From a virus (lineage: Duplodnaviria; Caudoviricetes), in IMG/VR virus record IMGVR_UViG_3300001598_000004, positions 1 through 64,000 of that record: DNA of 64,000 nt. One strand, 5' to 3'. Under the pieces are notes generated by a model. The model saw only the letters and a program-made list of their open reading frames with translations. It did not search any database and was not told where the DNA came from. The translations under genes and the position numbers were made by a program. Positions 7,283 to 58,528 of the stretch are shown here, piece after piece (the first letter of the stretch is position 1; every line of letters starts with the position of its first letter).

Positions 7283-10200
7283 TCAATCGCTTAATTGATT
7301 AGTATTAATGAGGTATTGACGTAGTTTACGCACTCCAACATAGTGACTTCCGTCAGGCATACATATATGCCAAGTATTGTTATTGCGAACGTTCCAAATA
7401 ACAAACTGCCTGTTCTCTTTTCCATCAACGTATTCCTTGACAATTACAGGCATCACATGACCTTCGGTTGTTGTTGGTGGCATAGTGTGAACTGTGTATA
7501 TACCTTCACTGAGAATAGATGTCGGTTGCTTTCCTTCTTCGGCTTTGGCTGTAACGACCTTACCATCATTCGCAAACTTTTCTTCTTGCCATTTTTCATC
7601 CTCTTGTAGAGAAATCCAATCACGCCAATATGCAGAGTAGTTTTCAATTTCTCCAAGTTTCTTTATACCTTGCCTCCACAGATATGCAGATGTTGGATTG
7701 AATGGCATTATAGTACCTAAATCATCGTCAAGGTTACTCCACTGCAAATATAGGCTAATAGGTGTGTAATATGCCCATTGTACTGAAATTTCAAACATAA
7801 TACCTTTTGGTCCCAGATTGTAAAGCAACTTACCCTCGTTATTGTAGTACTTTAGCACAGCATATCCATCAGCATCAAGTCCGAACTCAATATTTGGTTG
7901 TATATTGCCTGTTTTCATCACACGCATCAAACCGCCAGATATATCAATGGTAGCACCATTCTCTTCCATAGTTTGCAAGCGACCAACGATTAGATCGTCA
8001 ATACTTGCATTTACCACGCGCATAATATCAGCCTTTATCTGCTCGGAATAAAGAATGCGTGTAGCAACGAAATCACTTACTTGTGACTTTTGCCAAGGTC
8101 TGTCTGCATCCCATTTACTATTAGCTTGGTGACTTGCATCGTGTGGATCTTTGTTAGTATGAGTATAGTGACAAAGGAAGTACTCTGTTACTCCGTCAAT
8201 GGTTCTGACAACCATATCCTGATATTCCTCACCTCTCGCACCACCCATGTACTCAACATCTTCTTTCCACTCAGATGGTCCACGAAGAATAGCACCTCTT
8301 TGAGCCTTGTTTAACACATCAACGATAGCCTCTATTCTTGTGATTTGAAATTTTGACTCGCCAAACTTTGCTATGCCCATTTGCTCTACATTCTTAGGCA
8401 AAAGCATGAATGTTATCTTTTCAATACCATCATCCTTCTTGAGTTCAACGAATGAACCTTGAATTGGATTGCCATCATTGATAGAGTAGAACAGCCTATC
8501 CGTTACCTCAGTAGTTGTATCATCGCCAACAGTCTTACGAACCTTGCAAGTAACGATGTCAACATCTGGAACACCTTCGGCATCCCTCTGGACTACTGCT
8601 ACTGATGGAATGAGTGTGTACTGAGGTGTTGATTCTCCTTCTACAGCAGATTGTAACAGCTTCCAATCAGTATTTGTATCTGATGGTTCATCGACTCTTG
8701 CTTGTTCGACCACACACTCCCATTTAGCGTTATTGTGATAAACAGTATCAAAAGTGCTACTATTGCTAACGTATGGATCAGGACTATCAGCCACATTTGC
8801 ATCCCACTCGCCACGGAAACGCTCAATTCGGATAACATTTCCTTTATAGTCGATGAAATGCAAGTCCTGTATGAATGCACCTCTTGCGTATAAGTATGGC
8901 TGTGTAGGGTTAAGGCTGTGACCGCTTATAGTCTTTATGTCATAAGGCAAACCAAAGAATGCAGCATAGTTGTTCTGCGATAACTTAGGCTGAGTAACAC
9001 CATCAAGCATCGCAATTCTCTTCTCGTTTGAAGAGAGATACCAACAAGACTGACGACGGTTCACATACTTACCATCAACCAAATCAATTATTGCCCTATA
9101 TTCAGGATTCTCATGGTTCTCTTTTGTTGCAGGAATGCTATTACCCCAACGCTGAACTACCATGAGTGATGTTGGAGAGTAGTTCTTACTGATTTGGTTT
9201 TTACCACTTGGGCAATCACTATCAGCATACATAGACACTACCATGCTGTTATCGCCTTGTGCATCCGTTGACTCCACATGAAGCCATGTAGTATAGTAGT
9301 CACCTCGTTCTCCAAGATTAGAGAGGTTATTTACGATACCTCTGAGTACATCGCCAACACAGAAAGCGTGGAAATCTGTATCGCCACGCTTCTCCATGAT
9401 AGCCTTGTATCGCCCATCGCCTAATGGTTCAAGTTCCTTAATTGTTCCACTCTCCGTAAAGACATATTCAGATTCCTCCGCAGACAAACGATTATACACA
9501 AGTTCCAGAACTCTCAAAGCTGAACGCACCTCAAGTGACTCAACCTGCATATTACCATCGTTATCAACGCCCCATCCTCTGCCAAATGACATATCGTAGC
9601 CACTCCATGCCGCACTATTTAGCATTCCATCTACGATAGCATTTTTTACAACTTCGAGCCTATCAGCAGTAAGCTTGAATGGAGTTTCATCATCAGCATC
9701 CTTGTGGAGCATCCTTTCTTCGGCATCTTGCAAAGCACGAAGAATCTGCTGTATAGTGGCAGAGGAAACACTATTGCTATTGCTTATAATACCAATCTTG
9801 CTACTGATAGACTTTACGTCCTCTCTAAGTGTCTGTGTAGCACCTTTGAGGATGTCCGTACCGATAGTAAACTCAACTTGCGAAGGAATGTCAAGCTGAG
9901 TCACAATCTTTGTGATACGGCTATCAATCTCCGAGCCATCGACATTGCGGAGAATGACGTGCTGACCTAACGACAAATTTTTGTCGTAGGTGACAGAGTT
10001 TGACTTTACATTGTAGATATTGTTGTCAGCGAGGAGCTTGACAATCTCTTTATTTGCAGCTTCAAGAAGGTCAATACGCGCAACATTGAGGTATTCCTCT
10101 CCCATTAAAATATTGAAAAGGACTACCTTATCGCCGTTATTGCTTGGGAACGCTTCACCCCATGGCTCAAGTGTGTCATCATTAGGAAGAATGAGATCAT

Positions 10201-11407
10201 TCTCCTGCTGATAGCATATCTCATAATAATCTTTGCCGATGTCTATGCCTGTATCCTCAACAGCTTCATTCTTGTTAATCTTGACAGGCTGCGGATGGAA
10301 TATCATTTCAAACTCACGACCTGCAAGAGCAGAGTGTCCTTTACCCTCGTTAGGCTCAAATGAAGCCATCAACTTCTTGCCATTGACGATATGCTCCCTC
10401 GTTGCGCTTGTAAAGTCCTTCCATTCTAACCCTTCCTTATAAGCGAGTTTGATATAGTAGATACTATACTTCTTGTAAGTTCCGTCAGGGTTTTGGATAT
10501 ATTTACCATTCTTATCCTCCAAACGACGGGTTCTCTTCCTTACATCATAGACATAGAGGTCGAGGTGTGGATAGATATGGTCGAAAATAAGGGTTTTTAC
10601 AAGTTTTGGCTGGCTTTCGTCGGTTCGCTTGTCAATTATACTATCAGCACCATAAACCGCCGTATCAAGCGTTAATCGTGTATCCGTTTCTACATTATTG
10701 CCTGATGCAGTCTTTGTTGTAATGTTCCTTGTACCACCACGAACGATGAAACAGTTAGCTACCTCTTCGTTATTCCTGTTGATAGTAGGCACATTGATAT
10801 TGACACCAACTTCAAGGACAGGAGTAGTGATAGCCATATCGCGCTTGATATGTCCGAAGTAAATGAAAGCGTTACTCCAATCGACATAATACTCACACTC
10901 AAACTGATTACATATCTCCGTGAAAGCAGAAAGGATGTCAACGCCAGAGAAGGTACATGAAGCCGATGCAGCTATATCCTCCGCATTGATGATTGAGAAG
11001 TTAAAGTCTTTGCCTAACTCCGTGCGGATAATCTTTTGCATACCATCAAGCAAAGTGGCAAGACCTCCGACGAATGTCCAATCCGTATCCTTTACATCTT
11101 CTCCCGCAGCGTTCTTAGTAGCAAGAAGGCAAGGTGTATGAGCGAGGATCATCTTAGGGTGCTGAAACTGCGGCTCATACACATACTCACCTTCATTCTT
11201 TTGGGTCGGCAAACAATCACCAAAAAGAGTATATCTTATTCCATCAGCGAAAGGGATGATGTACGAACCAGTAGGAGTGATGTAGCTATCTACATCACTC
11301 CACTTCAAACTAACAAAGTCAGACTTCATTAGCTCCTGTTCGTGCTTTGCATCACGGGTTACTACTACATCGTGTAACTCTACTCCTGATGTGCTATATA
11401 TCTTCAT
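7283..11407 (-). CDS. Tail tip/baseplate hub-like host-specificity protein
   Basis: 1374 aa, immediately downstream of TMP and Dit-like genes. Confidence 0.65.
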   Translation of the reverse strand: MKIYSTSGVELHDVVVTRDAKHEQELMKSDFVSLKWSDVDSYITPTGSYIIPFADGIRYTLFGDCLPTQKNEGEYVYEPQFQHPKMILAHTPCLLATKNAAGEDVKDTDWTFVGGLATLLDGMQKIIRTELGKDFNFSIINAEDIAASASCTFSGVDILSAFTEICNQFECEYYVDWSNAFIYFGHIKRDMAITTPVLEVGVNINVPTINRNNEEVANCFIVRGGTRNITTKTASGNNVETDTRLTLDTAVYGADSIIDKRTDESQPKLVKTLIFDHIYPHLDLYVYDVRKRTRRLEDKNGKYIQNPDGTYKKYSIYYIKLAYKEGLEWKDFTSATREHIVNGKKLMASFEPNEGKGHSALAGREFEMIFHPQPVKINKNEAVEDTGIDIGKDYYEICYQQENDLILPNDDTLEPWGEAFPSNNGDKVVLFNILMGEEYLNVARIDLLEAANKEIVKLLADNNIYNVKSNSVTYDKNLSLGQHVILRNVDGSEIDSRITKIVTQLDIPSQVEFTIGTDILKGATQTLREDVKSISSKIGIISNSNSVSSATIQQILRALQDAEERMLHKDADDETPFKLTADRLEVVKNAIVDGMLNSAAWSGYDMSFGRGWGVDNDGNMQVESLEVRSALRVLELVYNRLSAEESEYVFTESGTIKELEPLGDGRYKAIMEKRGDTDFHAFCVGDVLRGIVNNLSNLGERGDYYTTWLHVESTDAQGDNSMVVSMYADSDCPSGKNQISKNYSPTSLMVVQRWGNSIPATKENHENPEYRAIIDLVDGKYVNRRQSCWYLSSNEKRIAMLDGVTQPKLSQNNYAAFFGLPYDIKTISGHSLNPTQPYLYARGAFIQDLHFIDYKGNVIRIERFRGEWDANVADSPDPYVSNSSTFDTVYHNNAKWECVVEQARVDEPSDTNTDWKLLQSAVEGESTPQYTLIPSVAVVQRDAEGVPDVDIVTCKVRKTVGDDTTTEVTDRLFYSINDGNPIQGSFVELKKDDGIEKITFMLLPKNVEQMGIAKFGESKFQITRIEAIVDVLNKAQRGAILRGPSEWKEDVEYMGGARGEEYQDMVVRTIDGVTEYFLCHYTHTNKDPHDASHQANSKWDADRPWQKSQVSDFVATRILYSEQIKADIMRVVNASIDDLIVGRLQTMEENGATIDISGGLMRVMKTGNIQPNIEFGLDADGYAVLKYYNNEGKLLYNLGPKGIMFEISVQWAYYTPISLYLQWSNLDDDLGTIMPFNPTSAYLWRQGIKKLGEIENYSAYWRDWISLQEDEKWQEEKFANDGKVVTAKAEEGKQPTSILSEGIYTVHTMPPTTTEGHVMPVIVKEYVDGKENRQFVIWNVRNNNTWHICMPDGSHYVGVRKLRQYLINTNQLSD

Positions 11408-11412
11408 CTATC

Positions 11413-11862
11413 CTATTGTGTAATTATAACGCCTTGTTTAGACGAGTCGATCAATTCTCTCTGCGAAACGTCATACTCGTGAAATACGATTGCAAATTTA
11501 CCCTTTTTCTTTCCATAATTACCATATTTTGAGCATCGCGAATAAACAAGGAGAAAAAGAGTATTCAACACAGGTATGCCTACAACTATAACACCATTAG
11601 AAATAACGCCAAGAAACGCCGCGTAATTGGCTAAATACGAGGTTTCATCATCGCCTTCGATGAAGAATTGCAATTGTAGTTCGCGTTGCTGATATTTTAT
11701 CGGCTGTGGCTTCACCTCTACGCCGTGTTGTATCCTTGACTCATTAGTCACCTGCTCCTTTGCGTCGGGAGGGGTAAGAAATGCTTCATACCCTCCCTTT
11801 ATAAGCGTTGCACCATACTGACTGATGTCAACACCGTTGATTGTCATCTGGTTCTTAATCAT
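11413..11862 (-). CDS. Distal tail protein (Dit-like)
   Basis: Position after tape measure; MTINGVDISQYGA N-terminus. Confidence 0.55.
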   Translation of the reverse strand: MIKNQMTINGVDISQYGATLIKGGYEAFLTPPDAKEQVTNESRIQHGVEVKPQPIKYQQRELQLQFFIEGDDETSYLANYAAFLGVISNGVIVVGIPVLNTLFLLVYSRCSKYGNYGKKKGKFAIVFHEYDVSQRELIDSSKQGVIITQ

Positions 11863-53694: not shown

Positions 53695-55650
53695 TTATTT
53701 CTTGTTTACGAAATTCATAAACTCAGCACGGGTCTCAGCATCGTTCTTGAAAGCTCCTGTAAGGAATGATGAGGTCATAATACCCTTCTTCTTTACACCG
53801 CGCATTTCCTTGCAAAGGTGTGAGCCTCGCATAACAAGAGCGATACCAAGAGGTGGATATTCTTCGCCAAGAGCCTTCTCAAGCATTTCTACGATGTCGT
53901 GCGTAAGACGTTCCTGCACCTGTAGTTTAGCAGCGCAATAGTCAACAACGCGACCAATCTTTGAGATACCGAGGATCTTGCCCTTTGGATTAGGAATGTA
54001 AGCGAACCAGTAATGCCCGAAGAAAGGCATCATGTGGTGCTCACAATTATGGGTAAGAACGCCGTTGATGCAGAATGTGTGTTCGTTGTCACATTTGAAA
54101 GAATATACCTTAGTAGGCTTATCCACAAACTCAACACTAACAACTTCTACCATTTCGCTCTCGCCAAGGTCTATGTTTGCTTCGTACTTCTCAAAGCCAT
54201 GCTTCTTGAACCACTCTTCACTTAGTACCTTCTTAGAGATATTGGTATTATAGACATCATGCTTAGATACTGCGCTCCGTATGCCTTTTACTCCGTTTCG
54301 TGACGCAACGCCCATGAAGTCACGCAATTCATTGATAAAGTCTTTATTTGTTGACATTATTCTATCATACTCCTGCTTTTCTCCGCGATAGCGAGTGCCG
54401 TCAGTATCAAGATAACCTTCAACAAAGCCTCTCCAACAATCATAGTTAGCCTTTACAATCTCAGGAAGGTGGAATTTCTGAGTCTTAGAGCCACAACCAA
54501 TAGATCCGAATGGAATGTTAAGCATCTTTAAGGTTCTGCGGGCAATCTCTGATGAAACAACACGAATGCGATATTGGATCATCTTACCACCGAAGCCGTT
54601 AGGCTTGCATATAGTTTCGATGTTTGCCTTATATCCAAACACGTTGTATAGAGCATCATAGAATTTACATGTCACCTCAGAATTGTTCGTTTCAAGACAA
54701 ATTCTTCTATCCTCTTGCACCGAGCATTCTGCTGCAACAACAGCAAGGAAATAGCCAAGTTTCTTTCCGACCTTAAAGTCATAATGCTTCTGGGTGAAAG
54801 TCTTTGGATTTATCCATTCAACTTTTCTGCCAAGCGAACTTCCTGCTTCTATCCACTCACCTTCTGAGCGCAAAGGATGATCCGCAGTAACGCTGAATCT
54901 CTTACCATTGGCAAGAGTTATGTTTACATATCCATCTGCCTTATGTGTGGTAATCTCAGTGATTGTTGTTTGCACAGGAATGCCATTGACAATAGTCCAG
55001 AGCTTATCTCCTACTCTCTGGTCTCTTGCGCGATTTTTCTTCCCTACAGAGTTGACGCACTGAAAGCCTGGTACACACATAGAATAGTAGTCGCCCTCGT
55101 CGATAACCATTGAGTCGTAGGTTATACCATCCTCTCCATTAGGGAACACAGTAATCTTTGGCTTCTTTGTTTCATCGTAACCTCTGAATATCTCTGCCCA
55201 CATACGGATGATGCGGTCAGGTGTGCCAAGCAAGCCTGTTCGATTTGGATCTTCGCCAATATACTCAAAAATGCGACGGATGTTATCTTCTACTGTTTCA
55301 CCCTTTTCGTCAGGGAACACGATCCATTCTCCTTCTGGCGACTCAGCACCATAATATGTGCATTTGTCGGTAGAATAAGGACGGCAGAACACTACTGCTT
55401 TATCATACTTGAAGTAATTCTCAAGGGTAGCTCCTGAGTCGCAGATGTCATCAACGACAAGAATGTTGCTATAACTTAATTCGGTAAATACAGGCAAGTC
55501 AAGCAACTTTCCAAGTTTGATTGCAGGATAATAGCCACCGCGAGGTATGCCGTAAACGCCTGTATATTTCTTGCCCGATTGTTCAATCTTACAGGCGAGC
55601 TTATTGATGTAGGCATCGTAAAGCTCATATGTCAAAACTTTCTTTTCCAT
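53695..55650 (-). CDS. folE: Phosphoribosyltransferase-GTP cyclohydrolase I fusion with intein
   Basis: YGIPRGG and LVVDDICDSGATL (type I PRTase); TPDRI, SM/CEHH, ISKIGR, LQVQERLT and HLCKEMRG (FolE). Confidence 0.92.
   Translation of the reverse strand: MEKKVLTYELYDAYINKLACKIEQSGKKYTGVYGIPRGGYYPAIKLGKLLDLPVFTELSYSNILVVDDICDSGATLENYFKYDKAVVFCRPYSTDKCTYYGAESPEGEWIVFPDEKGETVEDNIRRIFEYIGEDPNRTGLLGTPDRIIRMWAEIFRGYDETKKPKITVFPNGEDGITYDSMVIDEGDYYSMCVPGFQCVNSVGKKNRARDQRVGDKLWTIVNGIPVQTTITEITTHKADGYVNITLANGKRFSVTADHPLRSEGEWIEAGSSLGRKVEWINPKTFTQKHYDFKVGKKLGYFLAVVAAECSVQEDRRICLETNNSEVTCKFYDALYNVFGYKANIETICKPNGFGGKMIQYRIRVVSSEIARRTLKMLNIPFGSIGCGSKTQKFHLPEIVKANYDCWRGFVEGYLDTDGTRYRGEKQEYDRIMSTNKDFINELRDFMGVASRNGVKGIRSAVSKHDVYNTNISKKVLSEEWFKKHGFEKYEANIDLGESEMVEVVSVEFVDKPTKVYSFKCDNEHTFCINGVLTHNCEHHMMPFFGHYWFAYIPNPKGKILGISKIGRVVDYCAAKLQVQERLTHDIVEMLEKALGEEYPPLGIALVMRGSHLCKEMRGVKKKGIMTSSFLTGAFKNDAETRAEFMNFVNKK
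54046..55077 (-). mobile_element. Intein with LAGLIDADG endonuclease in FolE (344 aa)
   Basis: Begins CVPGFQ, contains TADHPL (block B) and FVEGYLDTDG, ends GVLTHN, followed by Cys of CEHH. Confidence 0.92.
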
Positions 55651-55653
55651 ATC

Positions 55654-56247
55654 TTAACGCACATTTATGATTTTCTGCTGTTGGAGAGAAAGCTGCCAAT
55701 CAGGATGTTTCTTGATATACTCAATACAACCATCAAGGATAGCCTTATTCTTCTTCTCATCGCCTGTATCACAAGGTTGCAGGTATTTGTTTTGAACCTC
55801 CACAGGGTAGTCCTTTATCTCATGTTCGCCGTCAAAGACGATTTTGATTTCGTCGGCAGCTACGATCTTAGGAGTTCCGTTGTTGACGTATGCGTCCTTT
55901 GGCGAGAAGGTAACATAGTCAATATTCCACGGATAAAGGTTAGTGCCGTTTGTTTCCATAGCGACATAGTAGCCATGATCGTGGAGTCGGTCAATGAGTT
56001 CGTGGTCGGCTTGAAGAGTTGGCTCGCCACCTGTCAAGACGATGAACTTACAAGAGCTATCTCCTGTTGTGACAATCTCTAAGATTAGGTCGTTAGCAGT
56101 CATTTCGACATAATCAGAGAAGTCAGTATCGCAGAAAGGACACTTTAGGTTACAGCCAGAGAAGCGGACGAAGATAGCCGCACTTCCAGCCCATCTACCC
56201 TCGCCTTGCAAGGAGTAGAAGATTTCGTTGATGCGATATGTTTTCAT
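55654..56247 (-). CDS. queE: 7-carboxy-7-deazaguanine synthase (radical SAM)
   Basis: EIFYSLQGEG, GCNLKCPFCDT and LTGGEP motifs. Confidence 0.95.
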   Translation of the reverse strand: MKTYRINEIFYSLQGEGRWAGSAAIFVRFSGCNLKCPFCDTDFSDYVEMTANDLILEIVTTGDSSCKFIVLTGGEPTLQADHELIDRLHDHGYYVAMETNGTNLYPWNIDYVTFSPKDAYVNNGTPKIVAADEIKIVFDGEHEIKDYPVEVQNKYLQPCDTGDEKKNKAILDGCIEYIKKHPDWQLSLQQQKIINVR

Positions 56248-56606
56248 TACATTGCCTCCTCGCCGTCAACCTTTGTATCATCAACATAACAAGCGATGTT
56301 GCCCTCTGACTCTTGCACGAATGCCTTGTAGCATTGAGGGAATTGAGAAACGATCCACTTTGCCATATTCTCAGCCGTAGGATTGAAAGAAAGCACCTCG
56401 TTGAGATACGCATGGTCGAGTTTATCGTGGATAGCATTCTTAATATGCTTGAAGTCGATAACCATTCCGTCATCGTTTAGGAAACGAGACTTGCAATATA
56501 CGGTAATGATCCAATTATGCCCATGAAGGTTCTGGCATTTACTTTCGTATGAGAGTTTCAACTTATGTGCAGCCGAAATCTCCATTCTTTTTGAAACGTA
56601 ATACAT
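56247..56606 (-). CDS. queD: 6-carboxytetrahydropterin synthase
   Basis: AAHKL...CQNLHGHNW...LDHAYLN...PTAEN. Confidence 0.95.
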   Translation of the reverse strand: MYYVSKRMEISAAHKLKLSYESKCQNLHGHNWIITVYCKSRFLNDDGMVIDFKHIKNAIHDKLDHAYLNEVLSFNPTAENMAKWIVSQFPQCYKAFVQESEGNIACYVDDTKVDGEEAM

Positions 56607-56620
56607 ATCCTCTTGTGTTT

Positions 56621-57274
56621 TTAAGATTCATATTCAGTTGTATCCTCGATACCTGCATCACGAAGAGCTTCTTTTCGCTCCACGCAAGTGCCACACTTAC
56701 CGCAGTGCTTCTCACCGCCTTTGTAGCAAGACCAAGTTTCCGCGTAGTCAAGACCAAGCTCTTTGCCGTGACGTGCTACATCAGTCTTTGTGATGTTGGT
56801 GTAAGGTGCAAGGATCTGGATGTTTTCGTAAGTGCCTGCACCCATTGCGTCAGACATAGCAGCGATGAAATCAGCACGGCAATCAGGGTAGATAGCATGG
56901 TCGCCCCCATGATTGGCAATCATCACGTTTTTCAAGCCGTTAGACTCCGCGATACCACAAGCAATCGCAAGCATAATGCCGTTACGGAAAGGAACAACTG
57001 TTGATTTCATGTTAGCATCAGCGTAATGTCCTTCTGGAATAGCATCAGCACCCTCAAGGAGAGAGGATTTGAAGTATTCGTGCATGAAGGTGAGAGGAAT
57101 TACGATGTGCTTGATACCAAGTCTTTCGCAATGCAACTTAGCAAATGGGATCTCTTTCTTCGCATGGTTTGATCCATAATCGAAAGTAATGCCCATTGCA
57201 ATCTTATCCTTATATTCGTGCAGGAGAGTTATTGAATCCATACCTCCTGACACTATAATCAATGAGTCCTTCAT
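56621..57274 (-). CDS. queC: 7-cyano-7-deazaguanine synthase
   Basis: SGGMDS, VPFRNGIML, YPDCR and CGKCGTC motifs. Confidence 0.95.
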   Translation of the reverse strand: MKDSLIIVSGGMDSITLLHEYKDKIAMGITFDYGSNHAKKEIPFAKLHCERLGIKHIVIPLTFMHEYFKSSLLEGADAIPEGHYADANMKSTVVPFRNGIMLAIACGIAESNGLKNVMIANHGGDHAIYPDCRADFIAAMSDAMGAGTYENIQILAPYTNITKTDVARHGKELGLDYAETWSCYKGGEKHCGKCGTCVERKEALRDAGIEDTTEYES

Positions 57275-57279
57275 CTTTA

Positions 57280-57747
57280 TTACTGGTTCTTGAAACAAGC
57301 TAAAAGGCGAGCCTTCTCAATATCCTTGTGTTCGTCGTCAGCATAAGTAGCGACAGGATAGATGCTTATACCACCGCGAGGCATGAACACGCCGATAACC
57401 TCAAGATACTTAGGCTGCATGAGGGCAACAAGGTCATTCTTAATCATATTCACGCAATCCTCGTGGAAATCTCCGTGATTACGGAATGAGAAAAGATACA
57501 ACTTGAGAGATTTAGACTCAACCATCTTCTCATTAGGGATGTAGTTGATGATGATCTTTGCGAAGTCTGGCTGACCTGTCTTTGGGCAGAGTGATGTAAA
57601 CTCTGGGCAGTTGAATGTCACAAGATACTCATTCTCAGGGTGTTTGTTAACGAAGGTTTCAAGCACCTGTGGCGCATAATCAGTTTCATACTTTGTGTTC
57701 TGATTGCCAAGCAAAGTAACGCCGTTCAATTCTTTTTCGTTTCTCAT
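57280..57747 (-). CDS. queF: preQ0 reductase (type I QueF)
   Basis: [17 protein letters not shown] and QueF motif VESKSLKLY. Confidence 0.93.
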
Positions 57748-57772: not shown

Positions 57773-58528
57773 TTATTTCCAAATAGGCTGTACGTTGTTA
57801 TACATAAAGTCTTGATATTTTCTCCATTCCATGAATGCAGGTCGCCCTAATGCTTGTGCGCTCTTCATTCGCTTTCCTTCTGGCTTTGGAATGAGTTTGA
57901 TGATACCCTCTTTAGGAAGGAACTTGAAGGTGTATCCGTATCTACGGCTCACAGACCATGTAGAAGAGTCAACAGAGTCGAAAGGTATCTTATGGAGCAT
58001 CGTACTCTTCGTGAAACCCAGTCCGTGAATACGGCAACCTAAAGAGTGAGCCTTGAGGACGAATTGGCGAGCATATTTCTCCGTTAGCTTTGGTGGGAGT
58101 CCTTCGGTAAGGAAGTATCCAAGAGCGATATAATCATAGTCCTTACAATCCTTTATGAATGACTCTTTGCCTCGGATCGTGTGCCAAACAGGAATAGATT
58201 GCCAACCAACAAGGTTTTCGAGTTTATCACGCAAGCGTCTTGTTTCCTCTACGCCATAAATCTGATCCACATCCATTTCGACATAGTTCCTTATATGGTT
58301 CGCTCTCACGAATGCAGCATACTCTTCGGTATATTTCTTAATATCTACCTGTTTGCCAGAGTTGATGAATGTAAAAACGCCACTATCGAGGATGAAGTTA
58401 CGCATCTTAGGAATGTTATTGATGATGCTATCCATCTTCTTACAATAATAGTAGGAAGAAAGGATGTCTGCACCAACGACCAGATCCTCAATATCCAATG
58501 TATTGTTGATAGCGAGATATACCTTCAT
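57773..58528 (-). CDS. dpdA: DpdA-like DNA deazaguanine transglycosylase (TGT fold)
   Basis: [28 protein letters not shown] and SVDSSTW motifs; inside the que cluster. Confidence 0.75.

Follow-up and report, generated by a model that had tools for sequence, protein, structure and literature searches.

The 64,000-nucleotide stretch of DNA from a gut phage analysed here (the window; positions 1 to 64,000 of IMG/VR record IMGVR_UViG_3300001598_000004, which is complete at 76.6 kb and has terminal repeats) contains a gene that joins a small type I phosphoribosyltransferase (PRT) in frame to FolE, the GTP cyclohydrolase I at the entry of 7-deazaguanine synthesis. This domain, designated the mini-PRT, belonged to a family with a purine site of the Gpt class and without the flexible-loop hairpin, which recurred in viral 7-deazaguanine loci either fused to FolE or as a separate gene. 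In the cultured phages tested, the mini-PRT separated complete from partial replacement of G in the DNA. We rate at about even the prospect that it is a guanine salvage enzyme that refills GTP for FolE and removes the product of the exchange performed by DpdA, the DNA-guanine transglycosylase.

The PRT-FolE gene

The open reading frame (ORF) at 53695..55650 on the minus strand encoded 651 residues with no internal stop. Both profile and fold matches identified residues 1-116 (55303..55650) as the mini-PRT. FolE followed in the same frame in two parts, an N-extein at 55045..55302 (residues 117-202) and a C-extein with the stop codon at 53695..54045 (residues 536-651), interrupted by an intein. 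These two stretches matched PF01227 (2.4e-48, 164 bits), and FolE passed the NF006826 cut-off (164.7 vs 162 bits). The zinc ligands of FolE (C536, H538, H539 and C613) were conserved, and the domain was whole only once the intein was spliced out.

The spliced product would be a two-domain PRT-FolE protein of 318 residues. The linker between the last PRT strand and the first FolE helix was about 6 residues long, and a structure model of the two domains gave a pLDDT of 94.1 and a pTM of 0.78. A preliminary description of the sequence had claimed an N-terminal PRT with a phosphoribosyl pyrophosphate (PRPP) motif, continuous in frame with FolE. This was confirmed by the ORF, the profiles, the AlphaFold2 model of the PRT and the PF01227 match. 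The intein, the missing flexible loop, the large and mostly stand-alone family beside FolE, and the link to complete replacement were absent from that description.

Class and fold of the mini-PRT

Residues 1-116 matched phrog_8995, 'phosphoribosyl transferase' (2e-9), the NCBIfam xanthine PRT NF006613 (7e-9), and xanthine-guanine PRT (XGPRT) and archaeal purine PRTs in the PDB (5e-6 to 5e-5). The NF006613 score of 35.4 bits was below the equivalog cut-off of 138, and because this cut-off was missed by such a wide margin, the family was not filed as a Gpt orthologue. For Pfam PF00156, this copy scored 21.1 bits, below the threshold of 26.3; many of its homologues were above it.

A profile of the whole family matched the Pyrococcus horikoshii purine PRT at 1.9e-27, the Sulfolobus solfataricus HGXPRT at 1.6e-21 and XGPRTs at 1e-15 to 1e-17, as opposed to merely 1e-5 to 1e-7 for HGPRTs. 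The AlphaFold2 model of residues 1-118, for which 51 relatives were aligned, had a pLDDT of 95.2. Its top matches in the PDB were all type I PRTs of the Gpt-class purine kind (TM 0.81-0.88, E about 1e-9). A fold search of BFVD retrieved the PRT of phage phiST and PRTs of giant viruses, and made the function no clearer. Both in sequence and in structure, the mini-PRT was most similar to the Gpt/XGPRT class, over HGPRT, APRT and OPRT.

The structures compared in the Gpt/XGPRT class were those from E. coli (1A95-1A98, 1NUL and 4JLS), Yersinia (5XTK/6KP5) and H. pylori (7KL6). The mini-PRT shared with them the fold (TM 0.81-0.85), the N-terminal helix, the RGG pyrophosphate (PPi) loop, the DDxxDxGxT motif, the K/R at the 6-oxo position, and the Trp in W-I-x-x-P. 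It differed in the distance from the RGG strand to the PRPP motif, which was less by about 21 residues, in its low identity (about 22-26%), and in its location in phage deazaguanine clusters, here with a fusion to FolE. The small purine PRTs of archaea, P. horikoshii 1VDM and the S. solfataricus HGXPRT GpT-2 (4Z1O) and APRT GpT-1 (4TRB, 6.2e-19), were the best profile and fold matches (TM 0.83-0.88), and had the WIVFPWE end motif in common with the mini-PRT. Unlike it, they retain an insert of 20-30 residues, and are cellular salvage enzymes with no link to FolE.

The difference in length was confined to one place. Ten residues occupied the position of XGPRT residues 52-82, which form the flexible-loop hairpin (20-30 residues), and this gap was found family-wide. 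When aligned with the mini-PRT, XGPRT, 1VDM and the Sulfolobus HGXPRT all showed the interruption at this site (loop II). This indicated that the family has the core of a Gpt-class PRT but lacks loop II.

Conservation of the active site

The core motif of type I PRTs (a hydrophobic run, two acidic residues and xxxxGxT) was present as LVVDDICDSGAT at residues 64-75. It lies within the PRPP-binding motif LVVDDICDSGATL (55423..55461, residues 64-76), in which D67 and D68 were assigned to the ribose and Mg, and S72-G73-A74-T75 to the 5'-phosphate loop. The PPi-binding loop R37-G38-G39 (55534..55542) aligned with R37-G38-G39 of XGPRT. At the purine site, R90 (55381-55383) aligned with the 6-oxo-binding K115 of XGPRT, W109 (55324..55326) with the purine-stacking W134, and D71 with D92. 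We take the roles of these XGPRT residues to be binding of O6 by Lys115, stacking by Trp134, and a purine-site role for D92, the Asp after the DD pair. Under the established HGPRT/XGPRT mechanism, it is this Asp of 6-oxopurine PRTs that deals with the proton on N7, an atom missing from 7-deaza substrates.

Conservation was assessed in 51 stand-alone proteins and in 40 fusion proteins sharing 32-76% identity. Common to the family were the PRGG loop, the motif L-V/I-V-D-D-x-x-D-S/T-G-x-T, a K or R at the 6-oxo position, and the end motif W-I-V-F-P-x-E. G38, G39, D67, D68, D71, G73 and E115 were invariant across the 40 fusion proteins, and R37, T75, W109 and K/R90 nearly so. R37 was kept in 49/51 stand-alone and 30/40 fused copies, next to the invariant G38 and G39. 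Trp occurred at position 109 in 48/51 and 38/40, and Lys or Arg at position 90 in 42/51 and 37/40, respectively. The residue at position 90 was Arg in the window and Lys in most relatives.

Recurrence of the fusion

A search with residues 1-202 of the protein found 563 homologues in the database. The best 120 of these were nearly all PRT-FolE proteins of 306-314 residues without an intein, 55-76% identical and from many independent assemblies. Intein-less homologues of this length numbered in the hundreds, with DpdA/Que clusters as their setting throughout. One homologue was an NCBI entry named 'GTP cyclohydrolase I FolE [Leyella stercorea]' (P0081). Two of the homologues lay in Prevotella-type (pro)phage clusters, in which a DpdA-like gene, QueC, QueD, QueE and PRT::FolE were present and the genes for terminase and portal came next. 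Of these two clusters, one had QueF and the other did not, and an integrase was next in one.

With the PRT domain alone, an exhaustive HMMER search gave 1679 clusters at 50% identity, mostly of stand-alone proteins of 110-150 residues. The proteins of about 230-320 residues in this set that had a second Pfam domain were all PRT-FolE fusions. A search of genome contigs with the single protein gave 26 loci, mostly on short contigs of metagenome-assembled genomes. Three of the loci were fusions from planctomycetes and some were adjacent pairs, and there were also PRTs of the ordinary kind from archaea that had no FolE.

The recurrence in 563 homologues indicated that the fusion is neither a product of chance nor a frameshift artefact. 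The preliminary description had named an assembly frameshift as a possible source of the fusion. We give practically no credence to an assembly or frameshift artefact or to a decaying remnant, in view of the 563 homologues, 15 fused viral contigs (see below), the fusion in a cultured phage (gp31 of phage MMDA13), the invariant motifs and the complete record. The sub-threshold Pfam score of this copy was all that we found on the other side.

A side observation concerned the 400-residue protein P0267, in which the mini-PRT is C-terminal and a LAGLIDADG domain N-terminal. Possibly a homing endonuclease has invaded, or become fused to, the gene of a stand-alone PRT.

Association with FolE in viral loci

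Scanning IMG/VR with the family alignment yielded 80 viral loci. FolE was present in 64 of the 80, on the same strand as the PRT in 64/64, and at a distance of no more than 150 nt in 47/64. The PRT preceded FolE in 39 and followed it in 25. Uninterrupted PRT-FolE fusions were found in 15 viral loci. When 158 PRT domains were placed on a tree, whose resolution was low, the 'fused' state had to change 11 times, and at least 5 of these changes were forced by well-supported branches. This suggested that fusion or fission occurred several times.

The other pathway genes were tallied with iterated hidden Markov models (HMMs) in 32 loci that had at least 6 kb of context on both sides. FolE was detected in 28/32, QueD in 28/32, QueE in 29/32, QueC in 23/32 and DpdA in 24/32. 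A survey of PRT-FolE fusions and of the presence of dpdA with them had been proposed in the preliminary description. The iterated HMMs were used in place of PF01702 and phrog_887, which missed DpdA in phages known to carry one; because of these misses, the absences of DpdA in the tallies are weak evidence. For QueF, only the rounds before round 3 were used, as round 3 drifted into FolE (both are T-fold proteins).

Three loci (L052, L054 and L083) contained FolE, QueD, QueE and the mini-PRT, with QueC and DpdA undetected within 6-10 kb. These may be pathways that end at 7-carboxy-7-deazaguanine (CDG).

The end product of the pathway varied alongside the PRT. It was preQ1 in the window, preQ0 in a Prevotella-type (pro)phage locus without QueF (L004), G+ in MMDA13 (which has QueF-L), fdPreQ1 in phage immuto, dDG in phiST and dADG in CP220. 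The sole constant across these end products was the GTP-consuming entry step.

The arrangement of PRT and FolE differed with the type of transglycosylase. In loci with a DpdA3-like (immuto-like) protein, the PRT and FolE were separate, adjacent genes in 24/24. On the other hand, the fused loci with a detectable DpdA had a window-like (DpdA1-like) transglycosylase in 9/9. The DpdA of the window resembled the DpdA1 proteins of Nonagvirus and mycobacteriophages, and not that of immuto.

The mini-PRT in cultured phages

About 405 deposited phage records encode FolE, and the mini-PRT was seen in roughly 15-20. This indicated an accessory gene rather than a core one. The stand-alone copies in phages (immuto gp211, CP220 CPT_0182, phiST CGPG_00045, StAshley 00160 and BUCT-ZZ01 UTS52039) belonged to the same family (1e-42 to 1e-15), had the same short loop, and mostly adjoined FolE or QueE: FolE in Flavobacterium phage immuto and Brevundimonas phage StAshley, and QueE in Synechococcus phage BUCT-ZZ01. 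They differed from the window copy in being separate genes, annotated just as 'phosphoribosyl transferase' or as hypothetical, and any DpdA detectable with them was DpdA3-like.

A true fusion was found in Sphingomonas phage vB_StuS_MMDA13, gp31 (L086:5941-6828). Its record reads 'putative GTP cyclohydrolase I type 1' with a domain at 116-295, leaving the N-terminal 115 residues unannotated, and the paper on this phage passes over the PRT domain as well. Both gp31 and the Leyella/Prevotella prophage 'FolE' (P0081) were PRT::FolE proteins inside DpdA/Que clusters. They differed from the window protein in having no intein, and were annotated as GTP cyclohydrolase I alone.

The family profile matched CP220, phiST and immuto, i.e. 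3/3 of the cultured lineages reported as completely substituted. These carry dADG, dDG and fdPreQ1, respectively (PMC10516641). It matched 0/9 of the phages with measured partial substitution (32% or less). Among these nine, the reported G substitution is 32% in CAjan, 28% in Rosebush, about 30% in HVTV-1, 1.7% in Dp-1 and under 0.1% in nt-1 (PMC6884629, PMC10516641), and PMC10484667 gives 16.5% for Iggy. The others were phiSM (about 4000 modifications per million nucleotides) and two phages of the DpdA1 and DpdA2 types, 9g and VH7D. The difference between 3/3 and 0/9 corresponds to a Fisher exact p of 1/220, in a small sample chosen by the authors. Two dI-containing Fletcherviruses related to CP220 (NCTC12673 and CP81) also gave no match to the mini-PRT profile (0/2).

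Two gene neighbourhoods were of separate interest. In StAshley (L088:3640-5474), the genes for ribonucleotide reductase alpha/beta, a deoxynucleoside monophosphate (dNMP) kinase, FolE and the mini-PRT followed one another in this order, with QueC about 10 kb off; this PRT-FolE pair is embedded in nucleotide metabolism and not in a Que cluster. In CP220, in which the substitution with dADG is 100%, the mini-PRT CPT_0182 (L117:6870-7283) was two genes upstream of a 389-residue radical S-adenosylmethionine protein.

Relation to described pathways

Descriptions of 7-deazaguanine pathways in phages list FolE-QueD-QueE-QueC(-QueF) plus DpdA. The mini-PRT is a further recurrent component of these pathways, and is mentioned in neither of the two main surveys: the word 'phosphoribosyl' is absent from both (PMC6884629, PMC10516641), as it is from the MMDA13 paper. 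Searches of full texts for DpdA or 7-deazaguanine together with phosphoribosyl terms returned nothing on the mini-PRT gene within an incomplete coverage of the literature. A 2026 preprint discusses PF00156 solely for Streptomyces gene clusters without DpdA. The view that the fusion had not been described as part of a Dpd pathway was therefore upheld in the literature searched. Two results were worked out here: that the mini-PRT is associated with complete replacement, and that fused genes go with DpdA1-like and separate genes with DpdA3-like transglycosylases.

As a concrete candidate for the means by which replacement becomes complete, the mini-PRT would act either through salvage that closes a cycle from guanine to GTP, deazaguanine, DNA and back to guanine and drives exchange to completion, or through entry into the nucleotide pool. 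Being a naturally occurring, minimal type I PRT that does without the catalytic loop, it should also be of interest for enzymology and for the making of deazapurine nucleotides.

Proposed role in guanine salvage

From what is shown here, namely the fold, the conserved motifs and the fusion together with the associations in genomes and phenotypes, we infer the following substrate, activity and physiological role. In each exchange by DpdA, one GTP-derived deazaguanine would be used and one guanine freed. The N-terminal mini-PRT would combine this expelled guanine with PRPP to give GMP. The host kinases Gmk and Ndk would convert GMP to GTP, the substrate of the attached FolE, so that the purine ring excised from the DNA would be re-used for the next 7-deazaguanine. 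Free guanine, an exchange product and a likely competitor, would at the same time be held low, and the exchange would run nearer to completion.

Guanine salvage would explain the Gpt-class site with its invariant Asp of the N7-handling type, the attachment to the entry enzyme whatever the end product, and the presence of the gene where the flux is highest. The preliminary description had suggested that guanine released by DpdA is returned to GMP/GTP and channelled to FolE. The salvage part of this was the best fit to the Gpt class, the invariant Asp and the link to FolE. Channelling in the literal sense did not stand, because GMP is two kinase steps from GTP and the fusion thus provides no direct channel.

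Several further points weigh against salvage. In other type I PRTs, the flexible loop closes over the transition state. As judged from the sequences, catalysis in this loop-less family may be weak or dependent on a partner, and salvage leaves unexplained how the enzyme functions without loop II. Hosts normally encode Gpt or Hpt themselves. A substitution of about 30% is still attained by phages that lack the PRT. DpdA was not detectable in 8/32 of the well-covered loci, although the means of detecting it were weak in general. Finally, the correlation with complete replacement fits a nucleotide-level route equally well.

Such a route is the basis of the main rival to salvage, in which the mini-PRT would be a deazapurine PRT that joins CDG, preQ0, preQ1 or 7-deazaguanine to PRPP, the nucleotide being phosphorylated and reduced to a modified dGTP for the polymerase. 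Ribosylation of preQ0 or preQ1 had been the second proposal of the preliminary description. We consider a deazapurine PRT unlikely on the whole; the route would act beside DpdA or, in the DpdA3-type phages, replace it. A shade more doubtful appeared the claim that a nucleotide-level route has the mini-PRT as its missing enzyme, which would explain why 100% of G is replaced in just those phages that have it (CP220, phiST and immuto). The consequence would be considerable: if true, it would revise the view that all 7-deazaguanine modification in phages is a post-replicative exchange of bases. Complete replacement is typical of nucleotide-pool strategies, and the mini-PRT was present in all three fully substituted lineages. 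A precedent exists in TubE, a PRT encoded in a FolE/QueD/QueE cluster, which joins CDG specifically to PRPP, with a decarboxylase acting next (PMC6112128). The combination of FolE, QueD, QueE and mini-PRT with a proposed CDG decarboxylase, DpdL, is found in phiST. Moreover, PMC10516641 reports that validation of DpdA3 did not succeed and that the cytoplasm of CP220-infected cells contained ADG nucleoside. The dNMP kinase beside the FolE-PRT pair of StAshley, a thymidylate kinase in the immuto cluster, and the three loci without detectable QueC or DpdA (L052, L054 and L083) are also consistent with such a route. The conserved contacts to the 6-oxo and 2-amino groups suit deazaguanines as well as guanine. 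However, the Asp that aligns with the N7-handling residue of XGPRT was invariant, and it would be useless for a 7-deaza base. It was FolE to which the gene was linked, not the enzyme forming the final base, and one close-knit family would need to accept many bases, or CDG would have to be diverted from QueC. The window itself has a DpdA1-like transglycosylase, and base exchange by this class was shown genetically in CAjan (PMC6884629). The likeness to TubE and ToyH of the tubercidin and toyocamycin clusters lay in a PRT encoded with FolE, QueD and QueE homologues; those clusters belong to Streptomyces secondary metabolism and have no transglycosylase, whereas the window operon has DpdA. TubE, with which the mini-PRT was compared by size and activity description only, is a full-size protein of 194 residues.

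The family-wide absence of the catalytic loop would fit a domain that is no longer catalytic. It would regulate FolE or act as a scaffold on it, either as a sensor of guanine, GMP, PRPP or (p)ppGpp, or by holding GTP or dihydroneopterin triphosphate (H2NTP), in the manner of PyrR and PurR, which are regulators with the PRT fold. The link of about 6 residues to FolE, the confident two-domain model (pLDDT 94.1, pTM 0.78), the occurrence of adjacent genes in both orders and the repeated fusion all fit a physical partner of FolE. On the other hand, all catalytic acidic residues, as well as the PPi loop, were strongly conserved, which a mere binder would not need, and stand-alone copies were sometimes far from FolE (phiST and CP220). 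We know of no FolE regulator with a PRT fold, and regard a purely regulatory role as improbable.

Other genes of the operon

PRT-FolE was the last gene of an operon with the order DpdA, QueF, QueC, QueD, QueE and PRT-FolE, all on the minus strand. DpdA, of the DpdA1-like type, was located at 57773..58528, QueF, which converts preQ0 to preQ1, at 57280..57747, QueC at 56621..57298, QueD at 56247..56606, and QueE at 55654..56247, with its stop codon 3 nt before the ATG of PRT-FolE. In related Prevotella-type (pro)phages, an ORF of 179-191 residues with no Pfam match was present between QueC and QueD (L002:8317-8892; L004:5648-6187). The window was without this ORF, and its QueC and QueD abutted.

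The intein

The LAGLIDADG homing intein in FolE (54046..55044, residues 203-535, minus strand) was 333 residues long. Aligned to the intein-less homologues, it lay exactly between YSM and CEHH, i.e. at the zinc-ligand cysteine of the CEHH motif of FolE. It had Cys1, a terminal His-Asn, Cys at +1 and an endonuclease domain, and its removal left a clean junction relative to the intein-less homologues. Most relatives were free of inteins. One homologue, P0122 (489 residues), contained a mini-intein at the identical site in FolE. In the related phage L004, the large terminase (9836-11422) contained an intein with PT-HINT and Intein_splicing matches, and the terminase of CP220 is likewise annotated with one. 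Inteins thus seem to be frequent in these phages.

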